Counted from the first letter of the stretch, positions 8,994 through 39,385 are shown. The stretch: 64,000 bases of DNA from an uncultured archaeon (GCA_964534625.1 CAZHRF010000001.1:3562-67561); one strand, 5' to 3'. Program-made: numbers and translations. The notes: generated by a model from the sequence alone, not told the origin.

Positions 8994-10473
<1,480 letters not shown>

Positions 10474-12343: not shown

Positions 12344-14251
12344 TTGAAGGTGAATATATTGAATCTTGAACAATGGATCAACGAAAAAGATTTACAAAAA
12401 CTTGAATCTCTTAATAATGAAAAAATTATGAAAGTAATCCATGATTTTTTATCCCTCTGTAAACCAAAAGAAGCTAAAGTAATAGATGACTCAAAAGAAG
12501 ACATTGCTTCTGTTCGTCAATTAGCTATTAAAAATAGTGAAGAGCAGCAGTTGAAAATGGAAGGACATACGATACATTTTGATGGTTTTTATGACCAAGC
12601 TAGGGACAAAAAAAACACTTGTATTTTAATTGATCCTGAAGAAAAGGATAAGTATGGTCCTCATCTTAATACACTTCCTAGAACTGAAGGTTTAGATGAA
12701 ATTTTAAATATCATGGATGGTTGTATGAAGAACAAAATTGCTCTAATCAGATTTTTCTGTTTAGGACCAACTAACTCTTCATTCTCTCAATGTGCACTCC
12801 AAATTACTGATTCTGCTTATGTTGCTCATTCTGAAGACTTATTATATAGACGAGGATATGAAGAATTTAAAAGGCTTAAGGATCCTAATGATTTTTTTTA
12901 TTTTATTCATTCAGCTGGTGAGTTGACCGATGCAAATGTCACTAAGAATGTAGATAAAAGGCGTATTTATGTTGATTTACAAGAAAATCGTGTTCTTTCT
13001 GTAAATAATCAATATGCAGGTAATAGTCTTGGATTAAAGAAGCTTGCACTTCGATTGGCTATTAATAAAGCTATTTACAATGGATGGTTAACTGAACACA
13101 TGTTTATTTCTGGTATTCATTCTCCATTCAAAGAAAGAAAAAGTTATTTTTTGGGTGCATTTCCAAGTGCATGTGGAAAAACTTCTACTGCCATGGTACC
13201 TGGGAATACTATAGTTGGAGACGATATTGCATATCTTCGTTTAGATAATAAGAATATCCCAAAAGCTGTGAATATTGAAAGTGGTATATTTGGAATTATA
13301 AAAGATGTTAATCCTAAAGATGACCCTGTTATATATAATACTCTCACTACAGAAAATGAATTGATATTTTCAAATGTTTTGATTAATGATGGAACCCCCT
13401 ATTGGATTGGAATGGGAGATCAAGTAGATATTCCCCAAAAAGGAACGAATTGGTCTTCATCTTTATTAGGTGAGTGGTATAAAGGAAAAAAAGGTCCAGA
13501 TGGTAATGAATTACCCCCATCCCATCCAAATGCTAGATATACTATAAAAATTGAAGATCTTGAGAACTTTGATGAAACTTTACATGATCCCGAAGGCGTA
13601 ATTGTTTCAGGAATTATTTATGGTGGTAGAGATTCTGATACTTCAGTACCTGTTTTTGAGTCATTTGATTGGGAACATGGAGTTTACGTAGGTGCAACAA
13701 TTGAATCCGAAACTACTTCTGCGACATTAGGTAAAACTGGTGTAAGAAAGCATAATCCAATGGCAAACCTTGATTTCATTGTTGTTCCTCTTGGTGATTA
13801 TATCAAGTCTCATCTAGATTTTGGAAAGAAAATACCTGATGACAATAGACCATGTATATTTTCAACTAACTATTTCTTGAAAGATGAAGATGGTCAATAT
13901 TATGATGAAATTCTTGACAAGAAAGTTTGGTTATCTTGGGCAGAAGGGAGATATCATGGCGATTATGAAGCAATTGAAACACCTATAGGTTACCTTCCAA
14001 AATATGAGGACTTAGTAGATCTTTTTCAAAACATTTTTGATAAACCATATGATAAAAAAAGATACCAAAAGGAATTTTCTATAAGAGTTGATAAATTCCT
14101 CGAAAAATGTGATAGAATTGAAGAAAGTTTCAAACACGAGAACCTCCCCAATGAATTTTATACCCAGCATGACCTTCAGAAAAAAAGATTGTTAGATATA
14201 AAGAAAAAATATAACAAATCTATAATCTTTCCTTCCGATTTTATCAAATAG
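12344..14251 (+). CDS. pckG: phosphoenolpyruvate carboxykinase (GTP)
   Basis: 635 aa with the kinase-1a motif FPSACGKTS and an overall GTP-PEPCK pattern (NARYT, YGGRDSD). Confidence 0.85.
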   Translation: MKVNILNLEQWINEKDLQKLESLNNEKIMKVIHDFLSLCKPKEAKVIDDSKEDIASVRQLAIKNSEEQQLKMEGHTIHFDGFYDQARDKKNTCILIDPEEKDKYGPHLNTLPRTEGLDEILNIMDGCMKNKIALIRFFCLGPTNSSFSQCALQITDSAYVAHSEDLLYRRGYEEFKRLKDPNDFFYFIHSAGELTDANVTKNVDKRRIYVDLQENRVLSVNNQYAGNSLGLKKLALRLAINKAIYNGWLTEHMFISGIHSPFKERKSYFLGAFPSACGKTSTAMVPGNTIVGDDIAYLRLDNKNIPKAVNIESGIFGIIKDVNPKDDPVIYNTLTTENELIFSNVLINDGTPYWIGMGDQVDIPQKGTNWSSSLLGEWYKGKKGPDGNELPPSHPNARYTIKIEDLENFDETLHDPEGVIVSGIIYGGRDSDTSVPVFESFDWEHGVYVGATIESETTSATLGKTGVRKHNPMANLDFIVVPLGDYIKSHLDFGKKIPDDNRPCIFSTNYFLKDEDGQYYDEILDKKVWLSWAEGRYHGDYEAIETPIGYLPKYEDLVDLFQNIFDKPYDKKRYQKEFSIRVDKFLEKCDRIEESFKHENLPNEFYTQHDLQKKRLLDIKKKYNKSIIFPSDFIK

Positions 14252-15978: not shown

Positions 15979-18900
15979 CCTCAACTATGCATACGCCATG
16001 CAGTGGATGACTAGGCTAGGGTGCCGATGAAGGACGTGGTAAGCGGCGAAACGCTACGGGGAGGCGCATACAGCCATCGATCCGTAGGTCTCCGAATCGG
16101 ATTTCCGGTTACAGTTGATAAGACTGTAACAACCAGTAATGGTGGGGAACGGCGGGAACCAAAACATTCAAGTACCGCCAGGAAAAGAAAACAATCGTGA
16201 TTCCGGTAGTAACGGCGAGTAAACCCGGAACAGGTCAAACCGAATGCCTATATTAATAATATGGGTGGATGTGGTGTTTTTGACTATCAAAGGATCGTCA
16301 GAGCTAAGTCGAAATAGCTTATGAAAGCTATGCCAAAGAAGGTAATAGCCCTGTAGACGTAAACTCTCGACCTGATAGATTTCAAGATTAATGTGGCTTG
16401 GATTTGTCGCATGAATTTGGGAAAACTTAGTCCCAAACCTAAATACATCCCTAGACCGATAGCGAACTAGTAACGTGAGTGAAAGTTGAAAAGTATTCGA
16501 AATACGAGAGTGAAAAGTCCCTGAAACTGTATGGTAACAGACGTGAATGGCTTAAAAGAGTAGATTCTGAGTGAAGGAAATCATTGTGAAGTGTGAGTAC
16601 GAATTCAGAGGATCGAGGTCATTCGTTCCGTCTCGAAACACGGGCCGAGGAGTTTAAATCTGTGGCAAGACAAAACATTAGTGGTGTCGTAGCGAAAGCA
16701 ACCAGCACGCAGCCGTAAGGTCAGGTGCGACGTCCGACAAGGGCGTGAAGTCACAGGTTTAAGACCCGAAAGCAGTTGATCTATCCCTGGTCAAGATGAA
16801 GCGCTTCGAAAGGGGCGTGGAGGTCTGAAGAGGTATTGATATGCAATTCATTCTTCTGAATTGGGGATAGTGGCAAAAGACCAATCTAAACTGCTGATAG
16901 CTGGTTCCTCCCGAAGTATAACCACAGTATAGCGTCATTGGAGGTCGTATGTGCGGTAGAGCGACGGGTGGGGGTTTCCGTGGAGTGAAATCTGCGCGCC
17001 CCTTTCCAACTCCGAACTTGCATACACCATAGAAGATGATAGACGGGCGCATATCCGCAAGGGATATGGCCGAAAGGGGATCAACCCTACGATGGGTTAA
17101 GGGCCCTAAATCCCGGTTAAATGTTAAACAGAATGGCGTCCAACAGCGAAGACAATGAGGCGGTAAGCTTAGAAGCAGCTAACCGTTAAAAAAAGCGTAA
17201 CAGCTTACTCATCGAGTTGTTGGGCCCAGAAAATGGACGGGGCTAAACCGGGTCCCGATACCTGTCCGGACTTCAAAAGAGTCTCGGGTAGGGAGGCGAT
17301 CGGATTGGACAGAAGCTGGGAAGTGATTTCCAGTGGACCGTTCTGATTTGCAGATCTCGGCGGTAGTAGGAGCATAGTGAGGTGGGAATCCTCATCGCCA
17401 AAAGCCCAAGGGTTCCTTGGCACTGTTCGTCAGCCAAGGGTTAGTCGGTCCTAAGGTGGAACTTAATACGACAAACCGAAAGGGAAACAGGTTCATATTC
17501 CTGTACCATACGTATAGTCGCGGCAACGCAAGTTCCGAGCTGACACTAGTGGGTAGGTGGTCTAAAAATCAAATTTTAGTTAAATCAAGAAATCTGGGAA
17601 GAACCGTTATGGTGAGAACCAGACGAATTGATGAATAGGCGAGCCATTGGTTGCTTGCTACCATTGATCCCAATAGTCCGTGAAAAAGCGAAGAAAAATA
17701 CGATTACGTATGACCGTACCCAGAACCGACACAGGTGTGGCTAGCTGAGAAGGCTAAGGCGTGTTAGGATAGTTTAGGTGAAGGAAATCGGCAAATTGGC
17801 CCCGTACCTTGGGTATAAGGGGTGCCTGGAAAGGTGAATGCCTTACCAGGTCGCAGTGACAAGGGGCACCCGACTGTTTAATAAAAACATAGCAAACTGC
17901 AAGGGTGAAAACCTGTGTACAGTTTGTGAATCCTGGCCAGTGCAGGTGATTGAAACCGGGGTACAACTCGGCTAAGACCCTGTAAACGCCGGAGCTAACT
18001 ATGAGCTTCTTAAGGTAGGCAAATGCCTAGTCTGCTAATTACAGACGTCCATGAAGGGACCAACGAGGTGCCCGCTGTCTCCACCTAAAACCTACTGAAC
18101 CCACAGTCCAGCGAACAGTCTGGAACGCACCATCGGGAAGAGAAGACCCTGTGGAGCTTTACTGCTGTCAGGGGCTGTTATACTGGTGTGCATGCATAGA
18201 ATAGTCAGGAGATGTTGATGGTGTGTTCTCCGGGACACACTGAAGTTGATCTTGAAATACTGACCATGTGCATTGGTATGACTTACCTCTTGCGAGGGGG
18301 ACACCCCCTGCCTGGCAGTTTCACTGGGGCGGTAGCCTTTTGAAAAGATATCAAAAGGGCCCAAAGCCGAGCTCAACCGGGACAGAAATCCGGTGTAGAG
18401 TGCAAGGGCAAAAGCTCGGTTGACTGTGAATCCAATTAAACGGTTCGCAGATGTTAACGCAGGGCCTAGCGATCTTTCGCATTTGCCATATGTAGGCGGC
18501 GGAAGTGACAGAAAAGTTACCCCAGGGGTAACTGCACTTCTAAACGGAAGTGGCTTAAAAACTGGGTAACAATTACATTTATTATCTTTCAAAAAGGTTT
18601 ATCAAAAAGGCAAAAATTTTTGGGTCTTCCTAAACGATTTATATAGTGAGGAAATAGTCAAGTAACTTCAGTTACAGGCCTATTGATTTGAGCAGATAGA
18701 TTAACCTGATATTAAGAAACCATCAGAACACAGTAAAACTATAAGAGCCATTATTCCGTGAGTGAACGATAGATAGGTTAAGAGATTGGTAACTTGCCTT
18801 TACAGGCCGACAACTGGTCTCTAATAACCGATGTGCAAAAATATTTTGTGCAAGTGCAGCCCTGAACAGAGTTGTCGTGGGTAAGAGTTCACATCGACCT

Positions 18901-19351
18901 CACGGCTTGCTACCTCGATGTCGGCTCTTCCTAGCTTGGTGGTGATTAAGCCACCAAGAGTGGGGTTGTTCGCCCATTAAAAGGGAACGTGAGCTGGGTT
19001 TAGACCGTTGTGAGACAGGTTGGATTCTATCTGATGGTGCTGGCGGGCGATTGAGAGCAAAATCTCCACAGTACGAGAGGAACAGGCGGTTGGGGCCGCT
19101 GGTGTACCGGTTGTTCTAAAGAGCATTGCCGGGTAGCTAAGCCCTTGACGATAAGAGCGGAAAGCATCTATGCTCGAAGCGTTTCTCAAAACGAGTCGCC
19201 CATTCTGCTCTATTCTGGGGACTGGTGACAGTAACCTTAAGAGTAGACGAGAGCGCGGAAAAAAGATCCGTTTGATAGAGCGGGGGTGTAAGCGTCGAGC
19301 TTTGGCGAGATGTTTAGCCTACCGCTACTAACTGCTCAAGCATAGTTAGGC
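15979..19351 (+). rRNA. rrl: 23S rRNA (interrupted by a 335-nt intron)
   Basis: The block is GC-rich. Terminal helix 1 pairs CCTCAACTATGC with GCATAGTTAGG. The sarcin-ricin loop AGTACGAGAGGAAC is at 19070..19083, and a conserved CTCGATGTCGGCTC is present. Ends are approximate to about 10 nt. Confidence 0.95.
18531..18865 (+). other. intervening sequence (intron) in 23S rRNA at the GGGGUA|ACAG peptidyl-transferase-region site
   Basis: An AT-rich 335-nt insert splits the universally conserved CCCC(A/G)GGGGUAACAG...AAGAGUUCA sequence. The junctions fold into an 8-bp inner helix (18532-18539/18852-18859), a 3-nt bulge UAA, a 4-bp helix (18525-18528/18860-18863) and a 3-nt bulge GAA. There is no ORF inside. 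Confidence 0.65.
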
Positions 19352-19412: not shown

Positions 19413-19524
19413 ATTTTTTATTTATTGCTTTTAAATTTCAAAGTGAGACATACAGATTTATTTTTGTAAAATTTTTATAAAAATGCGTGATGTGGAGTTT
19501 TTATATAATAAATAGATACTAATT

Positions 19525-22341
19525 TTGATTAACTCAAAGAGAAGATATAAATTGATATCAAAAAAATATAAAAACAATTCATCCGGAAATCATTCAATCA
19601 TTGCATTACTCTGGAAATTATTTTGTGGTTTTTTGAGGTTCCTTTTACCATACATTAATTCGTTTTTAGTGGGTTTTTTTATTCTATTAGTATTATTTCC
19701 TTCTACAATTGACTATTTTCCTAAAAGTAACTTTAGAAATGTTTTTCTCATTTTTAAAAGTATATTATCATTGAACTTAACCATGTATATATTTTCCTAT
19801 GAGTGGATCCATTATTTTTGTATAACTATAGTTGTAATTTTATTTTTATTTTGTACTAAATTTTTACCATACAGGGTATGTATCAAAGATAATGTGTATT
19901 ACCAGAAGAAAACTTTTTTCCCCTTATATCGCTCTTTTAGTATTATTGCCGTGAAATCTCCTTTAGACTCTTACTTTCTTAAAAATGATCGTTATGCAAA
20001 AACAATTCATCATGACTTTATTGAGCATCTCTCAAAAAATCTATCAAAGTATAACTTATTGATTACTAAGATTCAATCTAACGATGGGTCTATATTTGGT
20101 TCTGATGTTCCTTTTTTTTTGGTTATACCAACGACAAGTTTTTTTAGACATAATCTCATTAAAAAAACAGAAGCCAATCTACTATTTGTAAAACACTCAT
20201 TGAAAGTTTTCTACGATGCCACTTCGACCGTTTTAACACCGGATGAAATTGACTGGTTCTTCAATTTTTTAAACAGTTATAAACACCGAACTGTATTTTC
20301 TCCATCATATAAAGAAACAAAGATCCCAAATTTGACTGAACATATTTATTCATTATTTATAAATGAAACTATAGGCGATGCACAGTTTCTTTTCCATATT
20401 TCAAAAATAAATGAACATGACTATTATTTATGTGCTTCATGTCTAACTAGTAACAAAGAAACTAGTACTAAAATATATGAAACCATTGGTTTTAAACACA
20501 AAAAAAATTATCATATCCCCTTCAATAGAATTCAAAACATTCAAGCATTTTTTTCAACAGCGATCTCTAAAAAAACAAGATTTAAAATAAGTCTAAATAA
20601 TTTAAGTAATTATATTCATATACCCAATGGATATCTTGGTACTATAATAAAAAGAAAAGAGTTTTTAAGTACAAGTTTGACTTCAGAAAAGGATAAAATA
20701 GTTCTAGGGAATACTACTGATAATTTATCTTTTCCTATTTGTTTAAAAAAAGAAGATTTACTTTTCAACATAGAAATTTATGGCATGGTTGGGCGCGGAA
20801 AGACTCAATTAGTTAGTCTGATTTTAAAACAACTAATTAGTATAGATGTAAATATGTTAATTTTTGATATCAAAGGAGAATATGCCAGAGAATATGTTCA
20901 AAATCCAAATGTAGAAATTTATACTATAGGGCGTCCAAATCCCTTGTGTGTTAATGTTTTTGAGACTCAAGATGAAGACGATGTTCGTAGCACATTACTG
21001 ATCTTAGAAGAAATGCTGAAAACATCTAATCAAGATTTTTCTCCTGCTATGAAAAATCTATTCGAAACTGCACTATTTTTAACACATAAAACTAAAAGAA
21101 GACATCTTAAAACGTTTATAGAAAATCTAATAGACGTCACATCAAATCTCCGTATTCAAGGCAACAGTAATTATGTCCAACAGACATTAGATGCTGTTTT
21201 AAATCGGTTAAATTTTATTTTCAATCCTATAAATTTTGATATATTTGGTGTTTCAAGAACCACTCTCGATTTTACTAAATTTGAAAATGGAAAAACTATA
21301 ATATTGGATTTTTCAGAGTTCCAAAGGAGGGCAGCAAGACCTTCTGATATATATCTCATTTGTAATATAATATTAAAAATGTTCTATAGATATGCAACGA
21401 GTAGAGGTGTGACAAATAAACTTAGATATCTAGTTGTACTTGAAGAGGCGGTAAATATTATTCCTAGAATATATACGAATGAAAGTTCGGCTTCTTTAAT
21501 AAGCTCAGAAAACAACTTTTTGTTGGGAAGAAACCTTGGAATTGGCCATATAACTATTTCACAAATGTGGGATAGCGTTAGTAAGATTGTTCATGGTAAT
21601 TCTTCTACAAAAATTATTTTTAGAAGTAGTGAAAAAACCGATAAAATAGCTCGTGCATTGAATATTGGAGAAGATGAAATAAATAATTTACATAAATTAC
21701 CAATTCAGCATTGTTATGTATTCAAAGACGGTTTTGAAAAAGCTTTGGAACTTAAAACAAATAATATTTCAACGAACTCTTACAATTACTCTAATTATCT
21801 CTCTCTACTAAGAAGAAAATATCCATCACGTCAATATCCCTTGTTGTATGAAAATTTTATTGAAATGCGAACATCACTTTATAAACAAGTAAATAAAATT
21901 CAGACTTTTGAAAAGGACAAATCTTCTCAATCGGACCATTATCCTATAGAGCGAAATAAGAATGAAAATCTATCATCTGTTAATAGATCAATATATCATA
22001 ATCAAAGTACTATTACTATAGATCAATTATATCAAGATGATATTTGTAACCAATTATGCCAATTAAGTAATCATTCTGTTCACTGTTATAAGGGCAAATA
22101 CATTGCTATGATGTTTGTTGGAGAACTTCAAAAAAGATATAAGGATAAAGAATTACTAAATATAGTATTTAATTGCGACCTCTTTAATTCTGTTACTAGC
22201 CATGTAGAAAAAAATATTGGTATAAATATAGATCAACCAATAAAATTTTGTATCATTCAAAACCTAATATTCGACTTACTAAAAAAAACGAATCTGTCTG
22301 AAAATAATGCAGTACAAATACTGAGAAAATATGTAGAATAA
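19525..22341 (+). CDS. membrane-anchored HerA/FtsK-superfamily (DUF87-like) P-loop ATPase
   Basis: 938 aa with N-terminal hydrophobic helices. It has Walker A YGMVGRGKTQLV and Walker B LVVLEEA, then GIGHITISQMW...KIIFRS as in HerA/VirB4-like ATPases. The C-terminal tail contains Cys residues. Confidence 0.55.
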   Translation: MINSKRRYKLISKKYKNNSSGNHSIIALLWKLFCGFLRFLLPYINSFLVGFFILLVLFPSTIDYFPKSNFRNVFLIFKSILSLNLTMYIFSYEWIHYFCITIVVILFLFCTKFLPYRVCIKDNVYYQKKTFFPLYRSFSIIAVKSPLDSYFLKNDRYAKTIHHDFIEHLSKNLSKYNLLITKIQSNDGSIFGSDVPFFLVIPTTSFFRHNLIKKTEANLLFVKHSLKVFYDATSTVLTPDEIDWFFNFLNSYKHRTVFSPSYKETKIPNLTEHIYSLFINETIGDAQFLFHISKINEHDYYLCASCLTSNKETSTKIYETIGFKHKKNYHIPFNRIQNIQAFFSTAISKKTRFKISLNNLSNYIHIPNGYLGTIIKRKEFLSTSLTSEKDKIVLGNTTDNLSFPICLKKEDLLFNIEIYGMVGRGKTQLVSLILKQLISIDVNMLIFDIKGEYAREYVQNPNVEIYTIGRPNPLCVNVFETQDEDDVRSTLLILEEMLKTSNQDFSPAMKNLFETALFLTHKTKRRHLKTFIENLIDVTSNLRIQGNSNYVQQTLDAVLNRLNFIFNPINFDIFGVSRTTLDFTKFENGKTIILDFSEFQRRAARPSDIYLICNIILKMFYRYATSRGVTNKLRYLVVLEEAVNIIPRIYTNESSASLISSENNFLLGRNLGIGHITISQMWDSVSKIVHGNSSTKIIFRSSEKTDKIARALNIGEDEINNLHKLPIQHCYVFKDGFEKALELKTNNISTNSYNYSNYLSLLRRKYPSRQYPLLYENFIEMRTSLYKQVNKIQTFEKDKSSQSDHYPIERNKNENLSSVNRSIYHNQSTITIDQLYQDDICNQLCQLSNHSVHCYKGKYIAMMFVGELQKRYKDKELLNIVFNCDLFNSVTSHVEKNIGINIDQPIKFCIIQNLIFDLLKKTNLSENNAVQILRKYVE

Positions 22342-28554: not shown

Positions 28555-30813
28555 GTGTCTGGTAGAACTGAAATGTCTGGTATATTCGGTAACTTTTGGG
28601 AAAAAGTCGTTGATCATTTTGAAGACTATGAAATTGATAAAGAATTTTTATTACACAAACTTGCTCTAATTTGTATACTAACTGCAGGTATCATTATTCG
28701 ACTTTTTTCTTTAATCAAGGGTTATGATATTATTATTAAAGCATTTGATCCCTATGTTCAATTTATAAGTGCCAACTATATTGAACGGAATGGTTTTATA
28801 GATTTTGTTCATTGGGTAAAAAATGATTCTTGGTATCCTTTTGGGTTCCATATAGGTAGGGAATTGTATTGGGGCGTACCTATTAGTGCTATTGTTCTCC
28901 ATTGGTTTCTTAATCTTCTTACTTTTAATGTAACAATGCAACAAGTTGCATATTTTATTCCCGTTATTTATGGTGGATTAACAATTATTGCCTCTTATTA
29001 TTTGGGAAAAGAAACGATCAGTTCGAGAGCTGGACTGTTGACTGCACTATTTATGTCTATACTTCCCTCTTATGCCTCCCGTAGTGTAGCTGGCTTTTTT
29101 GATAATGAATATATTGGAATACTTTTTGTTGTATTGTCTTTATACTTCTTTTTGCGTGCCCTAAAAAGAGATGATACCTTATCAGCATTTTTAGCTGGCA
29201 TATGCTTAGCTGTGCTTATGGGCAGTTGGGGTGCATATAGATATGTGCTTGATTTACTGCCTCTTTGTGTGTTGTTCTTACTTTTATCGAGAAAAGTGAC
29301 TTATAATCTAATAAAAACTTATACTATTACTAATTTTGTTGCTATAAGTTTGGGATTTATTGTTAAAAGAGTTATTATGAATAAATTCTTTGGTATAGAA
29401 GTAATGATACCCATTTTAATGATAGCTTTGTTAATCTTTGTTGGGATAATACAAAATATATCAAGAAGTTTGCCTGAAAAAACATTCAAACAAGTACTTC
29501 TGATAGGGGCAATAAGTTCAATTTTATTACTTAGTATCATTGTGGGTGTGTTACTTTCTGTTGGTATATTTGATAACATAGCTGCCAAATTCTGGGCTGT
29601 GATTATTCCACGGGGTAGGGTAGATATACCTATTATTAATTCAGTGAGTGAGCACCAACCTATGCCTTGGGGTTCACTATTCAGAAACTTCCACATACTA
29701 ACATTTTTCATGCCGTTAGGGATATATTATTGTTTAAAAAAGCCAACTGATGTTAATATATTTATTCTAGTTTTTGGTGTTTCTGCTATCTATTTCACTG
29801 GATCTATGATACGGTTGGTCTTACTTTTAGCACCCGCTGCATCATTATTAAGTGCATTAGCTATAGATAGGATACTATACCCTTATTCGTTGAGTGCTCA
29901 TGGAAAAATAGCTTTAACTCGAAGGAAAGTACGTATTTCCAAATCAATAGGGCGGGATGAAGCAATGATTGCCTATATTGTGATATCCTTACTCTTGTTG
30001 ACTTTTGTCTTCCACTGTGTAAAAATCTCTGAAGGTTATGCTGCACCGGAGATGGCACCGCCGTCACCATATGGGAATTCTGTACCTATGACTGATTGGC
30101 AAGATGCATTAGCTTGGTTAAGAGAAAATGCTCAAGGACCTGGTGTTATTCCTAATAGCCCTTCTGTTGTTTTGAGTTGGTGGGATTATGGTTATTGGAT
30201 AACCAATTATGGTAATGCTACTACTCTAGTAGATAATGCTACGACAAACAAAACGCAGATTGGTACTGTGGGTACTATGCTTATGTGGAACCTCACCGAA
30301 TCTATACGGTTAATGTATAGATATAATGTCAAATACGTGTTGGTCAATAGTCAAGCTGGTGTTACTTGGTTGGGTTCTGATCTAGGAAAATCTGCTTGGT
30401 GTATCCGTATTGCAGAAGCCGATGTCCCTCATTATGGGATTAAAGAATCTGATTACATTGTAGAAGAAAGTGATGGGAGGCGCATTTATGCGAAACCTTT
30501 CTATGAATCAGTTCTATATAGATTATCGGCATATGACAAAGACACTGGTTTTGCATTTGACGGGCAGTATGGGCCCACAGGCCAAAATGCTCCATCTATA
30601 TTTGCAAAAGCATCAGATTATCCTGTTAAAGATTTAAAAGGGCCTGATGGTCATATATACTTTACTGAGGTTTATAGAAGTTACGGATTGGGAACTGACT
30701 CCGCAGGTACAGGAAGAGCCTTTCCGGGTGTGCGTATTTATGAAGTTATTTATCCTCCAAATATAGCCCAATTAGCAGCTGAACTTGATATGTTATATCC
30801 TAAAAATGGATAA
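28555..30813 (+). CDS. aglB: oligosaccharyltransferase STT3/AglB
   Basis: 752 aa with a multi-TM N-terminal domain. The catalytic WWDYGYW motif is followed by a soluble C-terminal domain. Confidence 0.85.
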   Translation: MSGRTEMSGIFGNFWEKVVDHFEDYEIDKEFLLHKLALICILTAGIIIRLFSLIKGYDIIIKAFDPYVQFISANYIERNGFIDFVHWVKNDSWYPFGFHIGRELYWGVPISAIVLHWFLNLLTFNVTMQQVAYFIPVIYGGLTIIASYYLGKETISSRAGLLTALFMSILPSYASRSVAGFFDNEYIGILFVVLSLYFFLRALKRDDTLSAFLAGICLAVLMGSWGAYRYVLDLLPLCVLFLLLSRKVTYNLIKTYTITNFVAISLGFIVKRVIMNKFFGIEVMIPILMIALLIFVGIIQNISRSLPEKTFKQVLLIGAISSILLLSIIVGVLLSVGIFDNIAAKFWAVIIPRGRVDIPIINSVSEHQPMPWGSLFRNFHILTFFMPLGIYYCLKKPTDVNIFILVFGVSAIYFTGSMIRLVLLLAPAASLLSALAIDRILYPYSLSAHGKIALTRRKVRISKSIGRDEAMIAYIVISLLLLTFVFHCVKISEGYAAPEMAPPSPYGNSVPMTDWQDALAWLRENAQGPGVIPNSPSVVLSWWDYGYWITNYGNATTLVDNATTNKTQIGTVGTMLMWNLTESIRLMYRYNVKYVLVNSQAGVTWLGSDLGKSAWCIRIAEADVPHYGIKESDYIVEESDGRRIYAKPFYESVLYRLSAYDKDTGFAFDGQYGPTGQNAPSIFAKASDYPVKDLKGPDGHIYFTEVYRSYGLGTDSAGTGRAFPGVRIYEVIYPPNIAQLAAELDMLYPKNG

Positions 30814-31108: not shown

Positions 31109-31879
31109 TTGAATAATATGACTAATTTTATCCATAAAATCATAAATCTATTTAAAACAGAGGAAACAAAATTTAAAACAGAAATGACAGAGAGACTAGA
31201 AAAAGAAAAACATATTAATTTAAAGACCGTCAATACAAAACTGCCCATAGATAACCGTATTTGTTTATTTCAAGAAATTGTGAAAAAAAGAAGAATTAAC
31301 GGTGTTTATCTTTCGAAACACTATCATTTCTTTTTAATGTCTGAAATGGATATTTCAAATATAAAAACAAAATTAAAAAGAGAAGGAAGAATAGAAATAA
31401 AAGATTTTTTCCAAAAGTGGAATGTAGACAAGAAAGTAATCGCTAGTTTACTAAACCAATTTGAGCGGGGAATTATGGGTAAGAGAGAATATTACGCTAT
31501 CTCTCACCTAGAGAATAGTTATTATTCAAAACTTAGGAACGTTGATGAATATGAACTTGAAAAACTAGAGGACGAAAACAAAGATTTGTCTATGGAACAA
31601 ATTCATAGCATCATAAATAACCTTATTGAGACAAAAAGATTAAAGGGCACTATACAAAGCAATTCAAAATATCTTAGTGGTTCTAAATTCAGAGAGATTA
31701 TGACCGAATATCTAGAAAAATTAGCAGAAAAATTTATTGAAATTTCTTTTAGTAAAATTAGCAGAGAACTAGAAATAAAAAAATCAGAAATTGAAACATT
31801 TCTGATTGAATATGTAAAAAAGAATCCCAGCAAAATTACTATATATCCCTTAGACCAAAAGATTATATTCAAAATATAA
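31109..31879 (+). CDS. hypothetical protein with winged-helix-like (PCI-like) C-terminal module
   Basis: 256 aa. The C-terminal ISFSKISRELEIKKSEIETFLIEYVKKNPSKITIYPLDQKIIFK resembles the WH part of PCI-type domains. This is weak, pattern-level evidence only. Confidence 0.35.
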   Translation: MNNMTNFIHKIINLFKTEETKFKTEMTERLEKEKHINLKTVNTKLPIDNRICLFQEIVKKRRINGVYLSKHYHFFLMSEMDISNIKTKLKREGRIEIKDFFQKWNVDKKVIASLLNQFERGIMGKREYYAISHLENSYYSKLRNVDEYELEKLEDENKDLSMEQIHSIINNLIETKRLKGTIQSNSKYLSGSKFREIMTEYLEKLAEKFIEISFSKISRELEIKKSEIETFLIEYVKKNPSKITIYPLDQKIIFKI

Positions 31880-32023
31880 GATAATAGGTACATATCTTTA
31901 ATAGAATAGATCTCTTTCTATCAAAAACCACTAAAATAAGATGGGATTTAGAAACGGATTAAAATTAATCTTGAAAAAGTGTTGAGTTTATTTACTAAAG
32001 TTGTTTTATTATAACAGATACAA

Positions 32024-32941
32024 ATGGAAAACAAAAAAAGAATTTCTTCAGGCATCACAGGTTTGGATGCCCTAATGTATGGAGGGCTAGTAAAAAATAC
32101 AGTTAACTCTATTGTGGGAGGCAGTGGAACAGGGAAAACAACATTTTGTTTATCATATATGCTTCAAGGATTACGCGAGGATGATCATATTCTATATCTG
32201 TCATTTGAAGAAACACCATCTAAATTGCTTGTTGAAGCAAAATCATTAGGAATAAACTTGGACAAATATGTATCAGATATAACTAATGTAATACACTTAG
32301 TGGAAAGCGAGAAAATTGTTGAATTCATTGTTGATATTTTACCTAGTTTAACAAAAAAGTTGAAAGACCAATATATCAAACATACAAGGATTATAATAGA
32401 TCCATTAACACCCGTTTTATGGGAATTTCCTTCAGAAAAAGATCAGAGAAAAGTATTAACAAAAGCATACCGGTATTTGAGTTCTTTAGGTACAGTCTTA
32501 CAAACTGTTGAAGAAGCCAACCCTTTCGGACAAGACAACATAGGAACAAGTGAAACTAGGGTCCCCATTTACCTATCAGATAGCGTAATCCAAATTCAGA
32601 ACTTAGGCTTTGGAGGTAAATATAGTAGAACATGCAAAGTCATAAAATCAAGACAAACTGCTCATTACGAAGGTATTTACTCAATGAATTTTGCGTATGG
32701 ATCCGGGATATCGATTGATGTAGAAACTAGAGATAATCACATCTCAAATGAAATAAATACGGAATATGAACGGATTTTGACAGTTCTTCAAACTTGGTCC
32801 AGAGCTAAGGATCCAAAAAAGAAACTAGTGTCTCAAATTGCAAATAATCTTTTAGATAAATCAAAGAGAACGGTTACTAATAAGGAAGTCGAGTTAGTCA
32901 AAACCTTAACGGATCCAAAAATACTGCAAGAGGTAAAATAA
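32024..32941 (+). CDS. KaiC/RecA-like single-domain ATPase
   Basis: 305 aa with GITGLDALMYGGLVKNTVNSIVGGSGTGKTTFCLSYMLQG (Walker A), Walker B-like RIIIDPL and a KaiC-like layout. Confidence 0.7.
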   Translation: MENKKRISSGITGLDALMYGGLVKNTVNSIVGGSGTGKTTFCLSYMLQGLREDDHILYLSFEETPSKLLVEAKSLGINLDKYVSDITNVIHLVESEKIVEFIVDILPSLTKKLKDQYIKHTRIIIDPLTPVLWEFPSEKDQRKVLTKAYRYLSSLGTVLQTVEEANPFGQDNIGTSETRVPIYLSDSVIQIQNLGFGGKYSRTCKVIKSRQTAHYEGIYSMNFAYGSGISIDVETRDNHISNEINTEYERILTVLQTWSRAKDPKKKLVSQIANNLLDKSKRTVTNKEVELVKTLTDPKILQEVK

Positions 32942-33303
32942 TGGATTGCGTTTGTACCATAAAATCTGATTTAATGGATATTGTCAATTTAGAAGATGTC
33001 AATGCAGCATTATTATTTAGAATAGATGGCAATGTGATTAGATCCTGTTTTAAATCAGAGTATGAACAAACACTAGTCCATATTCTTCAATGGTGTAAAG
33101 CGAATGTAAAAAAAGTTTCTGGAGAAATGAAAGACAATAATCTTGAGAAAGTGACCTATGAGCTAAGTAATGCTTGTATAATTTTTAATCTGGTTAATGA
33201 TGTCTGTTTACTCACGACAATTGCAAAATCAGATGTTAATGATACATTATTATCTATTGAATCAAAAAGGAAATCAATAGACATTGCAAAAAAGATGGGG
33301 TGA
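32941..33303 (+). CDS. Roadblock/LC7 domain protein
   Basis: 120 aa with VNAALLFRIDGNVIRS ... ACIIFNLVNDVCLLTTIAKSDVNDTLL. The start overlaps the upstream stop (TAATG). Confidence 0.55.
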   Translation: MDCVCTIKSDLMDIVNLEDVNAALLFRIDGNVIRSCFKSEYEQTLVHILQWCKANVKKVSGEMKDNNLEKVTYELSNACIIFNLVNDVCLLTTIAKSDVNDTLLSIESKRKSIDIAKKMG

Positions 33304-34619
33304 TTATCATTCAGATAAGTTCAAATACATTTTCTCATCGAAGCATGGATAAAATAATAGCAGATATTAAAAAAGAAATAATTGGAGATATAAATGGAAA
33401 ACCCGATTTTTTATTACTAGCTTTCACAACAGGATATAAAGTCCAAGAATATAAGAAAGCACTATCAATAATAAAAAATGAGAGTGGGGCTAAAAATATC
33501 ATTGGAGGGACTTTTCCAGGTGTTACAACATCAAACAGTAATCCAACGACCCAAGGTGCCTCTATCATGGCGATAAAATCAAATGATATTCACTTTGATG
33601 ATCTTATTTCTTATTCGAATGTTAGAGTCAAACAGAAACATATTATTGGAGAATTTAATGAATTATACAGAAATAACAACAGAAAATCAAAGGTTGGATT
33701 TGCAATTTCAGCTGGACCAACATTAGAAAAAAAGGCTATGAAACAAATGAAAGTATTAGATACTTTCTTTGCACAAAAGTTTAAAAGGATATTTAATGCT
33801 TTGGGAAAAGTTATTGAAAAAAGCATGGGAAGAAAAGGTTTTGGAACAAATGGATATATTGATACTATAATATATGAACTGGCAAAAAACAATTTTAACC
33901 ACTTAATTGGGGGAGCAACAGTAGATTTAAACTTAGATTCTATTAACTATCAATTTTTCAATCAAGAACTTATGAAAAATGCCTTTGTTGGGACTATTAT
34001 CTCATCAGATAAATACAGATTTGGGCAAAACTGGACATTTGACATGTCAAAAAGAACAAATACTTACAGAATCAATGATTATTTAAAATCGGGTTATTTA
34101 CAAAAAATTAATGATAAAAAAGCCAGTCAAGCATATCTTGATTTAATTGGAATGGAGAGGGATTTTTATAATGATGTTTTTGAGAGCTATTCTTATACAA
34201 ATCTATTATATCTGTCTGCTTTTAAGGAAAAAAAGGGTAATTATTTACCATTTTTAACAATAAATCATCCTTCTTTAGACGGGATAATTTCTTCAATTAC
34301 AAAAAATCAATTTAAGAAAAATAATTTTGATGCTAAATTATTTACACAATCAGGTAAAGGCATCAAAAAATCTGCTGCAAACTGTGCTTCAAGAGCAAAA
34401 GCTGGGCTCAAAACCCTAAAATTAGGTCTATTCATAAATTGTTCTAACAGATTACTAATAGCGGGAGATAAAATTTATGAAGAAAATAAAGCGATCAAAG
34501 ACGTTCTGGGTACCGATGTACCATTTATGACTTTATACACAGGTGGAGAATTCGCCATAATAAATGGAAAACCAATTAACTCAACTGTTTCTGTACATGG
34601 TTTAATCATTGGTAAATAA
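33300..34619 (+). CDS. FIST-like sensor domain protein
   Basis: 439 aa. The N-terminal PDFLLLAFTTGY...NIIGGTFPGVTTS and the C-terminal LYTGGEFAIINGKP...NSTVSVHGLIIG match FIST_N/FIST_C patterns as I remember them. The GTG start overlaps the upstream TGA (GTGA). An alternative ATG lies at 33345. Confidence 0.5.
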   Translation: MIIIQISSNTFSHRSMDKIIADIKKEIIGDINGKPDFLLLAFTTGYKVQEYKKALSIIKNESGAKNIIGGTFPGVTTSNSNPTTQGASIMAIKSNDIHFDDLISYSNVRVKQKHIIGEFNELYRNNNRKSKVGFAISAGPTLEKKAMKQMKVLDTFFAQKFKRIFNALGKVIEKSMGRKGFGTNGYIDTIIYELAKNNFNHLIGGATVDLNLDSINYQFFNQELMKNAFVGTIISSDKYRFGQNWTFDMSKRTNTYRINDYLKSGYLQKINDKKASQAYLDLIGMERDFYNDVFESYSYTNLLYLSAFKEKKGNYLPFLTINHPSLDGIISSITKNQFKKNNFDAKLFTQSGKGIKKSAANCASRAKAGLKTLKLGLFINCSNRLLIAGDKIYEENKAIKDVLGTDVPFMTLYTGGEFAIINGKPINSTVSVHGLIIGK

Positions 34620-34651
34620 AATTTGTGGAGTTTTAAAAGAATAATGGAGTA

Positions 34652-35257
34652 ATGAACATGATGATGACACATATCAATTCAAATCAATATGGCAAGGCTG
34701 ATGTTTTAAAGATTGCATTGCTTGGATTAGGTTCGGTAGGAAAAACTACGATAACAAAAAGATATACAGGAGATATTACGGACCTAGGAAATATCTCAAT
34801 GACAAAGGGTGTAGATATTTCAATTAAAAGACTTTTTTATAAAAATAAACCTATCGTTATCCAAATTTGGGATTTTGCGGGACAAAAACAATTTAAGTTT
34901 ATGCTTGATATTTTTTTGAAAGGTGTAAAAGGAATACTTTATGTCTATGATATAACAGATATTGAAACATTGTTTGATTTGGATGAGTTCGTTCTTTTAG
35001 CAAGAAACTTTTTGAAAGATAATGGTCTTCAAAGTATACCCGAAGTATTGGTTGGTAACAAAATTGATCTTGGTGAAAGTGAGATAAACATGAACGATAT
35101 TAACTATTTTCTTGCTGAACATAATATCTCAAAACATTACTTAACAAGTGGACTATATGCAACTAGTGTTTCAGAACCTTTCACATACATCATATCAAAA
35201 ATCCAAAATAAAGAATCAGATAAAAAACTGTTAAGTGTATTAAAATCAAGAGATTAA
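34652..35257 (+). CDS. Ras-superfamily (Rab/Ras-like) small GTPase
   Basis: 201 aa with G1 GLGSVGKTT, a switch I Thr (SMTKGVD), G3 WDFAGQ and G4 GNKIDL. Confidence 0.8.
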   Translation: MNMMMTHINSNQYGKADVLKIALLGLGSVGKTTITKRYTGDITDLGNISMTKGVDISIKRLFYKNKPIVIQIWDFAGQKQFKFMLDIFLKGVKGILYVYDITDIETLFDLDEFVLLARNFLKDNGLQSIPEVLVGNKIDLGESEINMNDINYFLAEHNISKHYLTSGLYATSVSEPFTYIISKIQNKESDKKLLSVLKSRD

Positions 35258-35267
35258 GGTAAACAAG

Positions 35268-35576
35268 ATGGAAGATAAATATATAAAGAAAACTTTCACC
35301 TGTGATTGTTGTGGTCAAAAATTGCTATTCAAAATTGAGAAGAATAAGTTAGAGGAAATATCTAGAAGTCAATTAATGAATTTTGTGATCATGCATGCAG
35401 ATGATCACACGCTCATTCTATCATTAGATGCTAGGGGTGAAATCCGACGAAAAAAAGTGGCAACTATCGGTGAGGTAGAAAATAACAGTTTAAATCAATC
35501 TTATCAAAAAATCAAGGCAATTTCGGAAGCAAAAAATCTCACTGAAGCCTTTAACATCTGGCTAAAGAACTGCTGA
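35268..35576 (+). CDS. hypothetical small protein with an N-terminal CDCCG motif
   Basis: 102 aa, starting 10 nt after the GTPase stop. I recognised no family. Confidence 0.35.
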   Translation: MEDKYIKKTFTCDCCGQKLLFKIEKNKLEEISRSQLMNFVIMHADDHTLILSLDARGEIRRKKVATIGEVENNSLNQSYQKIKAISEAKNLTEAFNIWLKNC

Positions 35577-37731: not shown

Positions 37732-38157
37732 ATGATAAAAAAATTACCATGGATTTTCCCGGGCATGAGAAGACCTAATTTTAATTTACACCGGCTTACA
37801 TTTCGTATTCCGACAAAAGTTCCAAATAGTGTACTATATGTGATTATATATACAATAATATTTTATATATACGCTGGTGGAGCTTACAATATTGTTAACA
37901 GAGACACTCTAATTAGCATTGGTAGTTCTGGAAGTCAACCTGTTTTTATACATACCTCGGTTCAAGCTCAATTTTTAATTGAAGGCTTGGTTGCAGGATT
38001 TGTTTTTGCTCTTGCTTCTTTAAGTTTGTATCTGCTGGATTATGCAACGAAATTCGCATTTGATGTAAATACAGCACAAAAAATAGAAGTTTTAGCTGCA
38101 TTACTTTTGACTATATGGTATGTTGTGATCCTTTTAATGTATAATGCAAAAGGCTGA
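37732..38157 (+). CDS. OSTC/DC2-like (OST3/OST6-family) oligosaccharyltransferase accessory membrane protein
   Basis: 141 aa with 3 predicted TM helices. It aligns by eye with the human OSTC sequence as I recall it: YAGGAYNIV vs ITGGIIYDVI, SQPVFI vs QRPVAF, and QFLIEGLVAGFVFALASLSLYLLD vs [24 protein letters not shown]. Confidence 0.55.
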   Translation: MIKKLPWIFPGMRRPNFNLHRLTFRIPTKVPNSVLYVIIYTIIFYIYAGGAYNIVNRDTLISIGSSGSQPVFIHTSVQAQFLIEGLVAGFVFALASLSLYLLDYATKFAFDVNTAQKIEVLAALLLTIWYVVILLMYNAKG

Positions 38158-38589: not shown

Positions 38590-39273
38590 TTAATATTTTG
38601 ATGTAATTCTTATCCCTTCTTTTGTGATGAAATATGTAATTTCATCATTTTCACATTTTGCCTTCCATTTATTCTTACTAGGCACTACTTCTGATAAGAA
38701 TATTGTTTTATCCACATAATACTCAAATGCTGCTTTTGCTACGGGTTTATATTCATATTTTGTTTTTGTTCCGCTTATTTGGTTACTTATAACGATGGAT
38801 AGATTTTTGTTTTTTCTGATTTGTTTGAGATATGCAAGTTGCATTGTTATTAGTTTTTGTTTTTTGATAAAATTTGTGTTAAGTATGCTTCTATATTGTG
38901 TTGTTAATCCGTTTATTATTATAAGTTCTATATTTGATTTTGTTAAAAAGTTTTTGAGATTCATAACAATTTGAAGTTGTTTGTGTATGCTCTCAATTGG
39001 CATTAAAATAATATTTTCAAGTATTTCACTTTCGGAGACAATATTATTTAATCTTCTTCCACTAAAATTTGCCTCACAATCCAATACACAAACTCTATCA
39101 ATTTTTTTTATATTTGAACAAATATGATACAAAAATATCCTTTTTCCAGATTTTGGTGGACCTGTTATTTGTGTTATCCCTTCTGGTATTTTTTTGTTCT
39201 TAAATATATCTAAAAACATGATTGTCATTAGTAGTTGGATACTAAAACTTTTTTGGTGGATTTCTATGTACAT
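38590..39273 (-). CDS. RadB/KaiC-like RecA-superfamily protein with deviant Walker A
   Basis: 227 aa with KKIPEGITQITGPPKSGKRIFLYHI, where GPPKSGKR replaces the expected GPPGSGKT, and a RecA-like beta-strand pattern. The start is uncertain (an internal Met lies at 39228). Confidence 0.5.
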   Translation of the reverse strand: MYIEIHQKSFSIQLLMTIMFLDIFKNKKIPEGITQITGPPKSGKRIFLYHICSNIKKIDRVCVLDCEANFSGRRLNNIVSESEILENIILMPIESIHKQLQIVMNLKNFLTKSNIELIIINGLTTQYRSILNTNFIKKQKLITMQLAYLKQIRKNKNLSIVISNQISGTKTKYEYKPVAKAAFEYYVDKTIFLSEVVPSKNKWKAKCENDEITYFITKEGIRITSKY

Positions 39274-39286
39274 TTTTTATTTAGAA

Positions 39287-39385
39287 TGGAGCCTCGAGGG
39301 GGAGTTGAACCCCCGACCTCTACCTTTTTGGAATCCATTTCGGATCTTACCAAGGTAGCGCATCTACCTACTGAGCTACCGAGGC
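39287..39385 (-). tRNA. tRNA-Thr(GGU) with a 22-nt canonical intron (39326..39347), CCA encoded
   Basis: Acceptor GCCTCGG/TCGAGGC, anticodon stem CTACC/GGTAG and T arm GGGGG-TTCAACT-CCCCC. The BHB is textbook: a 4-bp TTGG/CCAA central helix, bulges TAA and AAA, and an inner helix GATCC/GGATT. The D-stem 3' strand reads GATGC, one extra T relative to GAGC. Confidence 0.85.

Follow-up and report, generated by a model that had tools for sequence, protein, structure and literature searches.

A conserved five-gene cluster of Heimdallarchaeota that combines KaiC-like, Roadblock and FIST genes with genes for a Rab-like GTPase and a predicted zinc protein

Gene arrangement and conservation of the cluster

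We analysed a 64,000-nucleotide stretch of DNA from an uncultured archaeon (GCA_964534625.1, CAZHRF010000001.1:3562-67561), referred to below as the window, and focused on positions 32024 to 35576, where genes for a KaiC-like ATPase, a Roadblock-fold protein, a FIST protein, a small Rab-like GTPase and a small protein with a CxxC…HxxxH motif follow one another on the plus strand. The window is archaeal DNA with a G+C content of approximately 30%, and archaeal 16S and 23S rRNA genes are present in it. An original prediction, made from the sequence alone, had described the five genes as one tightly packed set containing a GTPase switch. The features of the locus are as follows.

32024-32941, plus strand: KaiC-like ATPase gene (kaiC), 305 amino acids (aa), single-domain
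32941-33303, plus strand: Roadblock/LC7-fold gene, 120 aa, KaiC-associated subfamily
33300-34619, plus strand: FIST gene, 439 aa, stand-alone FIST_N plus FIST_C, putative ligand sensor
34652-35257, plus strand: Rab-like GTPase gene, 201 aa, alternative starts at 34658 or 34661
35268-35576, plus strand: small CxxC…HxxxH protein gene, 102 aa, predicted zinc site
31980-31994, plus strand: promoter-like element P1, TGTTGAGTTTATTTA, 44 nucleotides (nt) before the kaiC ATG
34624-34638, plus strand: promoter-like element P2, TGTGGAGTTTTAAAA, 28 to 37 nt before the candidate GTPase starts
31109-31879, plus strand: DDRGK1/UFL1-like tandem winged-helix gene, 256 aa, conserved neighbour

The open reading frame (ORF) check recovered all five plus-strand ORFs at the coordinates originally predicted, together with the overlapping or near-overlapping junctions between them. 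TAATG at 32939-32943 joins kaiC to the Roadblock gene, GTGA at 33300-33303 joins the Roadblock gene to the FIST gene, and gaps of 32 and 10 nt follow. The preceding ORF (31109-31879) stops 144 nt ahead of kaiC, likewise as predicted.

Conservation of the neighbourhood was evaluated in a genome scan with a narrow FIST alignment, taking one genome per species. The scan found 25 species-level Heimdallarchaeota loci, including those of both closed Heimdallarchaeum genomes and of AB_125, and the same five-gene cluster was present on ten further metagenome contigs. The gene order (KaiC, Roadblock, FIST, GTPase, zinc protein) was identical in the 25 loci wherever the contig reached, and conservation extended to the junctions (-4 or -1 nt; 0 to 12 nt; 8 to 42 nt; 8 to 55 nt), with the Roadblock start overlapping the kaiC stop in every genome. 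Thus, the five genes were co-located in every related genome examined, which is the outcome that the original prediction had named as a check on itself. Chance does not account for the five-gene arrangement, given its recurrence and its conserved junctions across 25 species-level genomes. The 3' flank, in turn, varies: the EF-1alpha gene lies there in the window and in Heimdallarchaeum, and ribosomal protein genes lie there elsewhere. A divergent five-gene copy (loci L044/L045) was reached through a remote homologue of the zinc protein. The L045 proteins share 48, 31, 31, 43 and 36% identity with those of the window, in gene order; the junctions are -4, -17, +7 and +5 nt, the G+C content is higher and the neighbours are unrelated. 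Simple inherited synteny is argued against by this divergent copy and by the changing flanks, since both keep the five genes together.

The five encoded proteins

The KaiC, Roadblock, FIST and Ras-type assignments, for which the original prediction had likewise named a check beforehand, were recovered by hidden Markov model (HMM) and structure searches. The KaiC-like ATPase matched PF06745 with an expectation value (E) of 2.9e-33 over 226 of 231 model positions, and its best relatives in the PDB were KaiC proteins (E 1.7e-34). The Walker A motif GGSGTGKT, Glu62 and Walker B Asp126 were invariant in the alignment. About 75 aa extend the protein at its C-terminus; such an extension does not occur in the aligned non-Heimdall relatives but is present in the KaiC of the divergent L045 cluster. 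Bona fide circadian KaiC consists of two tandem domains, CI and CII, spans about 500 aa and has KaiA and KaiB as partners. In contrast, the window protein has 305 aa and a single KaiC domain, it scored far under the NCBIfam equivalog cut-offs (97 versus 408 bits), and no KaiA or KaiB gene was found at the locus by ORF and profile search. This RecA-type ATPase probably forms an autophosphorylating ring.

The Roadblock protein scored 19.6 bits against Pfam Robl_LC7, below the cut-off of 23, and only 4 of the 27 members of its subfamily matched that model at E below 0.1. Precomputed annotation placed it in PF27410 ('AF0774'), and its family profile matched the Asgard Roadblock structure 7f8m_A at E 0.004 (hhalign probability 69%). 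The AlphaFold2 (AF2) model, built with 56 homologues, reached a predicted local distance difference test score (pLDDT) of 89.4 and a predicted template modelling score (pTM) of 0.85, with an alpha-beta-beta-alpha-beta-beta-beta topology followed by a C-terminal alpha helix. In Foldseek, the top matches of the model were MK-D1 Roadblock3, MglC, MglB, a Thorarchaeota Roadblock protein and LAMTOR, with a probability of 1.00 and template modelling (TM) scores of 0.70-0.82. Judged from the model, the Roadblock fold assignment is secure, because a confident prediction matches the MglB, MglC, Asgard Roadblock and LAMTOR structures.

In the FIST protein of the window, FIST_N was matched at 25.0 bits (cut-off 23.2) and FIST_C at 27.5 bits, just below its cut-off of 28.5. 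All 13 family members matched both domains (best E 1.6e-8 and 1.5e-6), so the family has the FIST_N plus FIST_C architecture. The searches returned 33 close and four distant homologues, and every close homologue with a named source carried the label Heimdallarchaeota, Heimdallarchaeaceae or Asgard group. The homologues (446-447 aa) support the GTG start at 33300, as they align over the first 15 residues from this codon. The public gene call begins at the ATG at 33345, 45 nt further downstream, and gives 424 aa; the deposited protein is therefore probably 15 residues short at its N-terminus. A sequence search of the PDB found no solved relative. No histidine was conserved across the wider FIST subfamily alignment, and there was no sign of haem.

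The GTPase matched PF00071 at E 2.4e-26 and the Gtr1_RagA family much more weakly (E 3.4e-5). Its closest solved structures were Rab11, Rab1, Ypt1 and a Thorarchaeota Rab (E about 1e-19; 5.7e-19 for the last), and nearly all of the top 60 PDB matches were Rab, Ypt or Sec4 proteins. The predicted motifs GLGSVGKT, DFAGQ and NKID were all present in the window protein. Among the orthologues, GLGSVGKT, the switch-I Thr51, WDFAGQ with the catalytic glutamine and GNKxD were invariant, and G5 had the variant form S-G-(L/M/I); in the L045 and L047 GTPases the G4 motif reads TKxD. The aligned Heimdallarchaeaceae orthologues have no C-terminal prenylation cysteine and end in ...LKSRD, ...SKYSNI and similar sequences. 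The start of the GTPase is ambiguous between 34652, 34658 and 34661.

The fifth gene had been described as encoding a small Cys protein. Cysteines are indeed present, yet only two of them (C12 and C15) are invariant and they are joined by two invariant histidines (H43 and H47), these four being the sole invariant Cys/His positions in 48 sequences. The AF2 model (pLDDT 74.9) consists of five beta-strands and a C-terminal helix and places CxxC and HxxxH in two hairpin turns. There was no Pfam or NCBIfam match. A known fold was not assigned, the best Foldseek match in the PDB having only E 0.39 and TM 0.32, and short profile matches to Cas2 (E 0.017) and to the DHp helices of EnvZ (E about 0.05) were rejected, since the fold search disagrees with them. 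The domain is rare: among 1.8 billion representatives, searched exhaustively by HMM, it had only 14 relatives. Its gene always directly follows a gene of this GTPase subfamily, and the same holds for the remote homologues. The C-terminal parts of the longer homologues P0225 and P0227 were considered as Roadblock/longin-like and rejected (hhalign probability below 1%, empty PDB search).

Promoter-like elements and modular origin

The original prediction had called the five genes very likely one operon. This is now doubtful, because a conserved element resembling a transcription factor B recognition element (BRE) and a TATA box lies just before the GTPase gene as well as before kaiC. The 15-nt element before kaiC (P1) has the consensus TGTGGAGTTTATTTA, with TTTATTTA as its TATA-like half, and is abbreviated TGTGGAGTTT. 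It is fixed 43 nt before the kaiC ATG in 21 of the 24 other loci that cover the upstream region, the exceptions being L015 (one mismatch) and the two Heimdallarchaeum genomes (a different TATA-like sequence). P2 has the form TGTGGTGTTTTAAAT, lies 21 to 37 nt before the chosen GTPase start across loci and is present in 23 of the 24 loci in which the region is visible, L015 being the locus that lacks it. In most genomes P2 overlaps the final FIST codons (KNVVF-stop), encoded by AAAAATGTGGTGTTTTAAAT (L001 9329-9343). FIST ends earlier in the window and in L016 and L033, both Heimdallarchaeum genomes being included here, so that P2 is intergenic and still conserved. Since the element is kept where it is intergenic, its conservation is at the DNA level, and the KNVVF tail of FIST may exist as a side effect of this DNA signal.

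The strict 15-nt motif occurred 46 times in 350 kb of loci, each time at P1 or P2. The second half of the motif looks like an archaeal TATA box, and from the positions of P1 and P2 transcription would be expected to begin at the start codons or immediately ahead of them. By sequence and position, P1 and P2 would be two promoters with a common upstream half, an arrangement that points to a pair of co-regulated units instead of a single operon. The possibility that the element is only a general promoter consensus was rejected, as the strict motif is confined to P1 and P2 in these loci and its relaxed forms are seldom found there ahead of ORFs.

A copy with one mismatch to the element, ATGTGGAGTTTTTATA, was found at 19490-19505, 35 nt before a gene for a HerA/DUF87-type ATPase (19525-22341, 938 aa). 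In several other genomes a HerA/DUF87 orthologue is located about 3 kb from the cluster, with the related sequence AGTGGAGTATAAATA near its start (L001 about 15361, minus strand). The HerA/DUF87 gene could share a regulon with the cluster.

The distribution of the genes outside Heimdallarchaeota bears on the role of the Roadblock protein. Roadblock proteins are regulators of small GTPases in characterised systems, and the original prediction had likened the present one to the partners of GTPases in MglA/MglB and Ragulator-Rag. The subfamily comprises 390 relatives, and seven contexts outside Heimdallarchaeota, Altiarchaeota among them, were sampled. In all seven the Roadblock gene directly followed a single-domain KaiC-like gene, in three a FIST gene was also present, and in none was there a GTPase or zinc-protein gene. 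This Roadblock subfamily has its conserved partner in the KaiC-like ATPase, rather than in a GTPase. The MglA/MglB or Ragulator-Rag analogy is thus unsupported by the comparative data, because the Roadblock gene follows kaiC in contexts devoid of a GTPase. According to an older idea, Roadblock proteins regulate NTPases generally, beyond GTPases, and a subfamily tied to KaiC-type ATPases across archaea is consistent with it. In one non-Heimdall genome (L036 3475-9633), the KaiC-Roadblock-FIST triad is interrupted by inserted genes, which include PIN-domain genes and toxin-antitoxin-type HEPN or HepT nucleotidyltransferase genes.

A second scan, run with the GTPase alignment, returned 80 loci. 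In some, a GTPase of the same subfamily (37-40% identity) was followed by the overlapping gene for a 300-aa protein carrying the zinc domain at its N-terminus, and this in turn by genes for two proteins with V4R domains. No KaiC, Roadblock or FIST gene was found within 5 kb of these GTPase-zinc-V4R loci. The other 66 loci held more distant small GTPases and had no zinc-domain, KaiC, Roadblock or FIST matches nearby. The tightly overlapping GTPase-zinc-V4R-V4R set was observed at L058 4929-7710, L047 300-3236, L059 and L060 (another sediment lineage). V4R is generally regarded as a small-molecule-binding domain. Its fold is related to that of TRAPPC3 (PMC10933270).

The five-gene set is therefore a composite of two cassettes, KaiC-Roadblock(-FIST) and GTPase-zinc protein. 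The first is an old archaeal unit, older than the fused set, because the Roadblock gene follows kaiC in all of the non-Heimdall contexts and FIST accompanies them in some. The second is independent of it, because the GTPase-zinc pair occurs with V4R genes and without KaiC, Roadblock or FIST. Both Heimdallarchaeaceae and the L045 lineage have the two cassettes joined.

Interpretation and genomic surroundings

With moderate confidence, we interpret the locus as a conserved composite signalling module, in which a KaiC/Roadblock/FIST ligand-input cassette is coupled to a GTPase/zinc-protein output cassette. The description given in the original prediction, a sensor-coupled GTPase switch with an ATPase hub, stays the best reading of a function that we infer. 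The domain identities and the co-location of the genes behind that description stood; the Roadblock-GTPase pairing is unsupported by the comparative data, the single operon is doubtful, and the descriptions of the upstream neighbour and of the small Cys protein needed refining. By analogy with NosP, a ligand would be signalled to the KaiC-like ATPase by the FIST protein. KaiC would have the Roadblock protein as its fixed adaptor, because translational coupling links their two genes in every lineage. With its full catalytic set, the GTPase would serve as the output switch, and the zinc protein would be dedicated to it as a partner, either effector or regulator. The state of the ligand would then be relayed through KaiC and the Roadblock protein to the nucleotide state of the GTPase, with the Roadblock dimer possibly acting on the GTPase as well. 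The idea of a sensor cassette plus a GTPase output is supported by the V4R-linked loci, because the same GTPase-zinc pair is joined to V4R genes there. The physical interactions and the direction of signalling, like the zinc binding and the promoter activity, are what we infer from these data.

Several points weigh against this interpretation. Ligand binding by the FIST protein is a sequence-based prediction, and zinc binding by the small protein is predicted from its CxxC…HxxxH motif. The cassettes could act independently, because they have separate promoter-like elements and are found apart elsewhere. The promoter-like element may not be specific to the module, because in the window relaxed copies lie ahead of the HerA-like gene and of a second large ORF; it is also absent from the divergent L045 cluster. 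Finally, the KaiC-Roadblock-FIST triad may already be catalogued among the neighbourhoods of Makarova et al. 2017.

Makarova, Galperin and Koonin reportedly proposed in mBio in 2017 (cited in PMC5847659), as a computational prediction that includes no characterised case of the present composition, that KaiC-like ATPases are archaeal signal-transduction hubs. The locus resembles this concept in that a single-domain KaiC ATPase with intact catalytic motifs lies beside predicted input and adaptor genes, and departs from it in the attachment of a Rab-like GTPase and a zinc protein, which appears specific to Heimdall lineages. Full-text searches, which did not extend to the neighbourhoods of Makarova et al. 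2017, yielded no paper linking KaiC with FIST and none describing this five-gene cluster. With the MglA/MglB system of Myxococcus and Thermus, the locus shares a Roadblock protein with a third helix (TM 0.78-0.82 to MglB and MglC) near a gene for a Ras-superfamily GTPase; in contrast to that system, the GTPase has the G3 motif DxxGQ and is Rab-like rather than MglA-like, kaiC is the gene with which the Roadblock gene is coupled, and the 1.3-kb FIST gene separates the Roadblock gene from the GTPase gene. The MglA/MglB system has no counterpart of FIST, KaiC or the zinc protein. A Roadblock-fold protein and a small GTPase in a sensing context also recall Ragulator-Rag, and the model matches LAMTOR. 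However, Rag GTPases bear their own C-terminal Roadblock domain, whereas the 201-aa GTPase of the locus is a G domain only, and there is a single Roadblock gene. No homologues of LAMTOR1, FLCN or DENN were found at the locus.

An Asgard operon containing a LAMTOR1-like Roadblock protein, a Rab-like GTPase and a DENN protein was described by Liu et al., who do not mention KaiC, FIST or the zinc protein and place most eukaryote-like Asgard genes outside conserved neighbourhoods (bioRxiv 10.1101/2020.10.19.343400). Like that operon, the locus is an Asgard neighbourhood joining a Roadblock-superfamily protein and a Rab-like GTPase; unlike it, none of the six locus proteins matched DENN at E of 1 or below. 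NosP proteins are the only characterised stand-alone FIST proteins; they bind a partner autokinase and tune its autophosphorylation according to the ligand (PMC12570481). In both the bacterial NosP-NosK pair (PMC12570481) and the present locus, a stand-alone FIST gene lies beside a gene for an ATP-using enzyme, here predicted to autophosphorylate, although the partner is of the KaiC/RecA type rather than a histidine kinase and no response regulator accompanies it.

Other explanations of the locus were weighed against the composite module. A core formed by the GTPase-Roadblock pair, with the Roadblock dimer as GTPase-activating protein, guanine nucleotide exchange factor or platform and with KaiC and FIST as accessories, is possible, though unlikely. 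It fits the superposition of the Roadblock model on MglB, MglC and LAMTOR, extra C-terminal helix included, the constant company of the two genes at the Heimdall locus and the general role of characterised Roadblock proteins. Nevertheless, the Roadblock gene overlaps kaiC at the stop and start codons and accompanies it without a GTPase in all seven other archaeal contexts, the FIST gene and a promoter-like element separate it from the GTPase gene, and elsewhere the GTPase subfamily is encoded at loci that lack a Roadblock gene within 5 kb. Two unrelated side-by-side systems without cross-talk, whose adjacency is inherited synteny, would explain why each cassette is found alone in other lineages and has its own promoter-like element. 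We consider this improbable, as the adjacency outlasts divergence to 31-48% identity with completely different flanks, the Heimdallarchaeaceae flanks rearrange while the five genes stay, and both promoters share a 15-nt element whose strict form occurs nowhere else in the sampled loci.

The neighbours raise the prospect of a membrane, translocon or protein-modification machine formed with the DDRGK1/UFL1-like, OST3/6 and STT3 proteins. The DDRGK1/UFL1-like gene always adjoins the cluster, most genomes have OST3/6 within 2 kb of it, and both the window and Heimdallarchaeum have an adjacent STT3 gene; moreover, the origin of UFL1 and DDRGK1 has been placed in Asgard archaea and a UFM1-independent role suggested for them (PMC10183829). 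However, the L045 cluster has no DDRGK1/UFL1-like or OST neighbour, and the five proteins have no predicted membrane segment and no match to a glycosylation or ubiquitin-like enzyme, which makes this explanation very improbable. An anti-virus defence system based on the KaiC-like ATPase and the GTPase is hardly credible and was rejected. The PADLOC matches that would speak for it were weak and at the P-loop level only (mad8 at E 4e-6 for KaiC, LeoA at E 3e-3 for the GTPase), and no protein had a full-length defence-family match. Defence islands are typically patchy in distribution, whereas this locus is single-copy, lies among housekeeping genes and is vertically conserved across the whole family.

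Asgard archaea encode dozens of eukaryote-like small GTPases, along with Roadblock or longin proteins. The GTPase genes lie mostly outside operons with their regulators and are hard to pair (PMC10933270; bioRxiv 10.1101/2020.10.19.343400), and for this reason the present locus is a useful exception. It gives one Rab-like GTPase fixed candidate partners, namely the zinc protein, the Roadblock protein, the FIST sensor and the KaiC ATPase, and joint expression and testing should be feasible with these short soluble proteins. It also places an archaeal DDRGK1/UFL1 homologue beside a signalling module. As a speculation to which we give little credence, the GTPase and its zinc adaptor could be the output of a plug-in architecture with interchangeable sensor cassettes (KaiC-Roadblock-FIST in Heimdallarchaeaceae, the V4R pair in another lineage), the Heimdallarchaeaceae module cooperating with the DDRGK1/UFL1 ancestor. 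If true, this would be a prokaryotic forerunner of the sensor-Roadblock-GTPase logic of Ragulator-Rag and TRAPP-Rab, in relatives of the eukaryotic ancestor, and would provide the first functional context for the archaeal UFL1/DDRGK1 homologue.

The gene upstream of kaiC had been predicted to encode a winged-helix protein, which holds; more specifically, the protein is DDRGK1/UFL1-like. Its family profile matched a DDRGK1-UFL1 fusion (PDB 8b9x_A) at E 5.8e-8 and DDRGK1 at E 1.4e-4, and among 16 family members Pfam E3_UFM1_ligase was found in 14 and DDRGK in 11. The gene is always the immediate neighbour of kaiC and lies on the opposite strand, in divergent orientation, in each of the 23 other loci that show it. 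It is outside the transcription unit of the kaiC cluster.

Further genes accompany the cluster. In the window, the OST3/6 gene is located at 37732-38157 and the STT3/AglB gene at 28555-30813. A short Rad51/RadB-like ATPase gene (window 38590-39273, minus strand; L001 4608-5237) and OST3/6 accompany the cluster in most Heimdallarchaeaceae, and in the window the two are on the opposite side of it. A distance of about 5.5 kb, in which protein-size ORFs lie (e.g., 12344-14251), separates the 16S (8994-10473) and 23S (15979-19351) rRNA genes of the window. At 3373 nt, the 23S match is longer than its model of 2987 positions and may hold insertions. Rfam identified a 96-nt tRNA at 39290-39385 on the minus strand, unreported by ARAGORN, which may be intron-containing.

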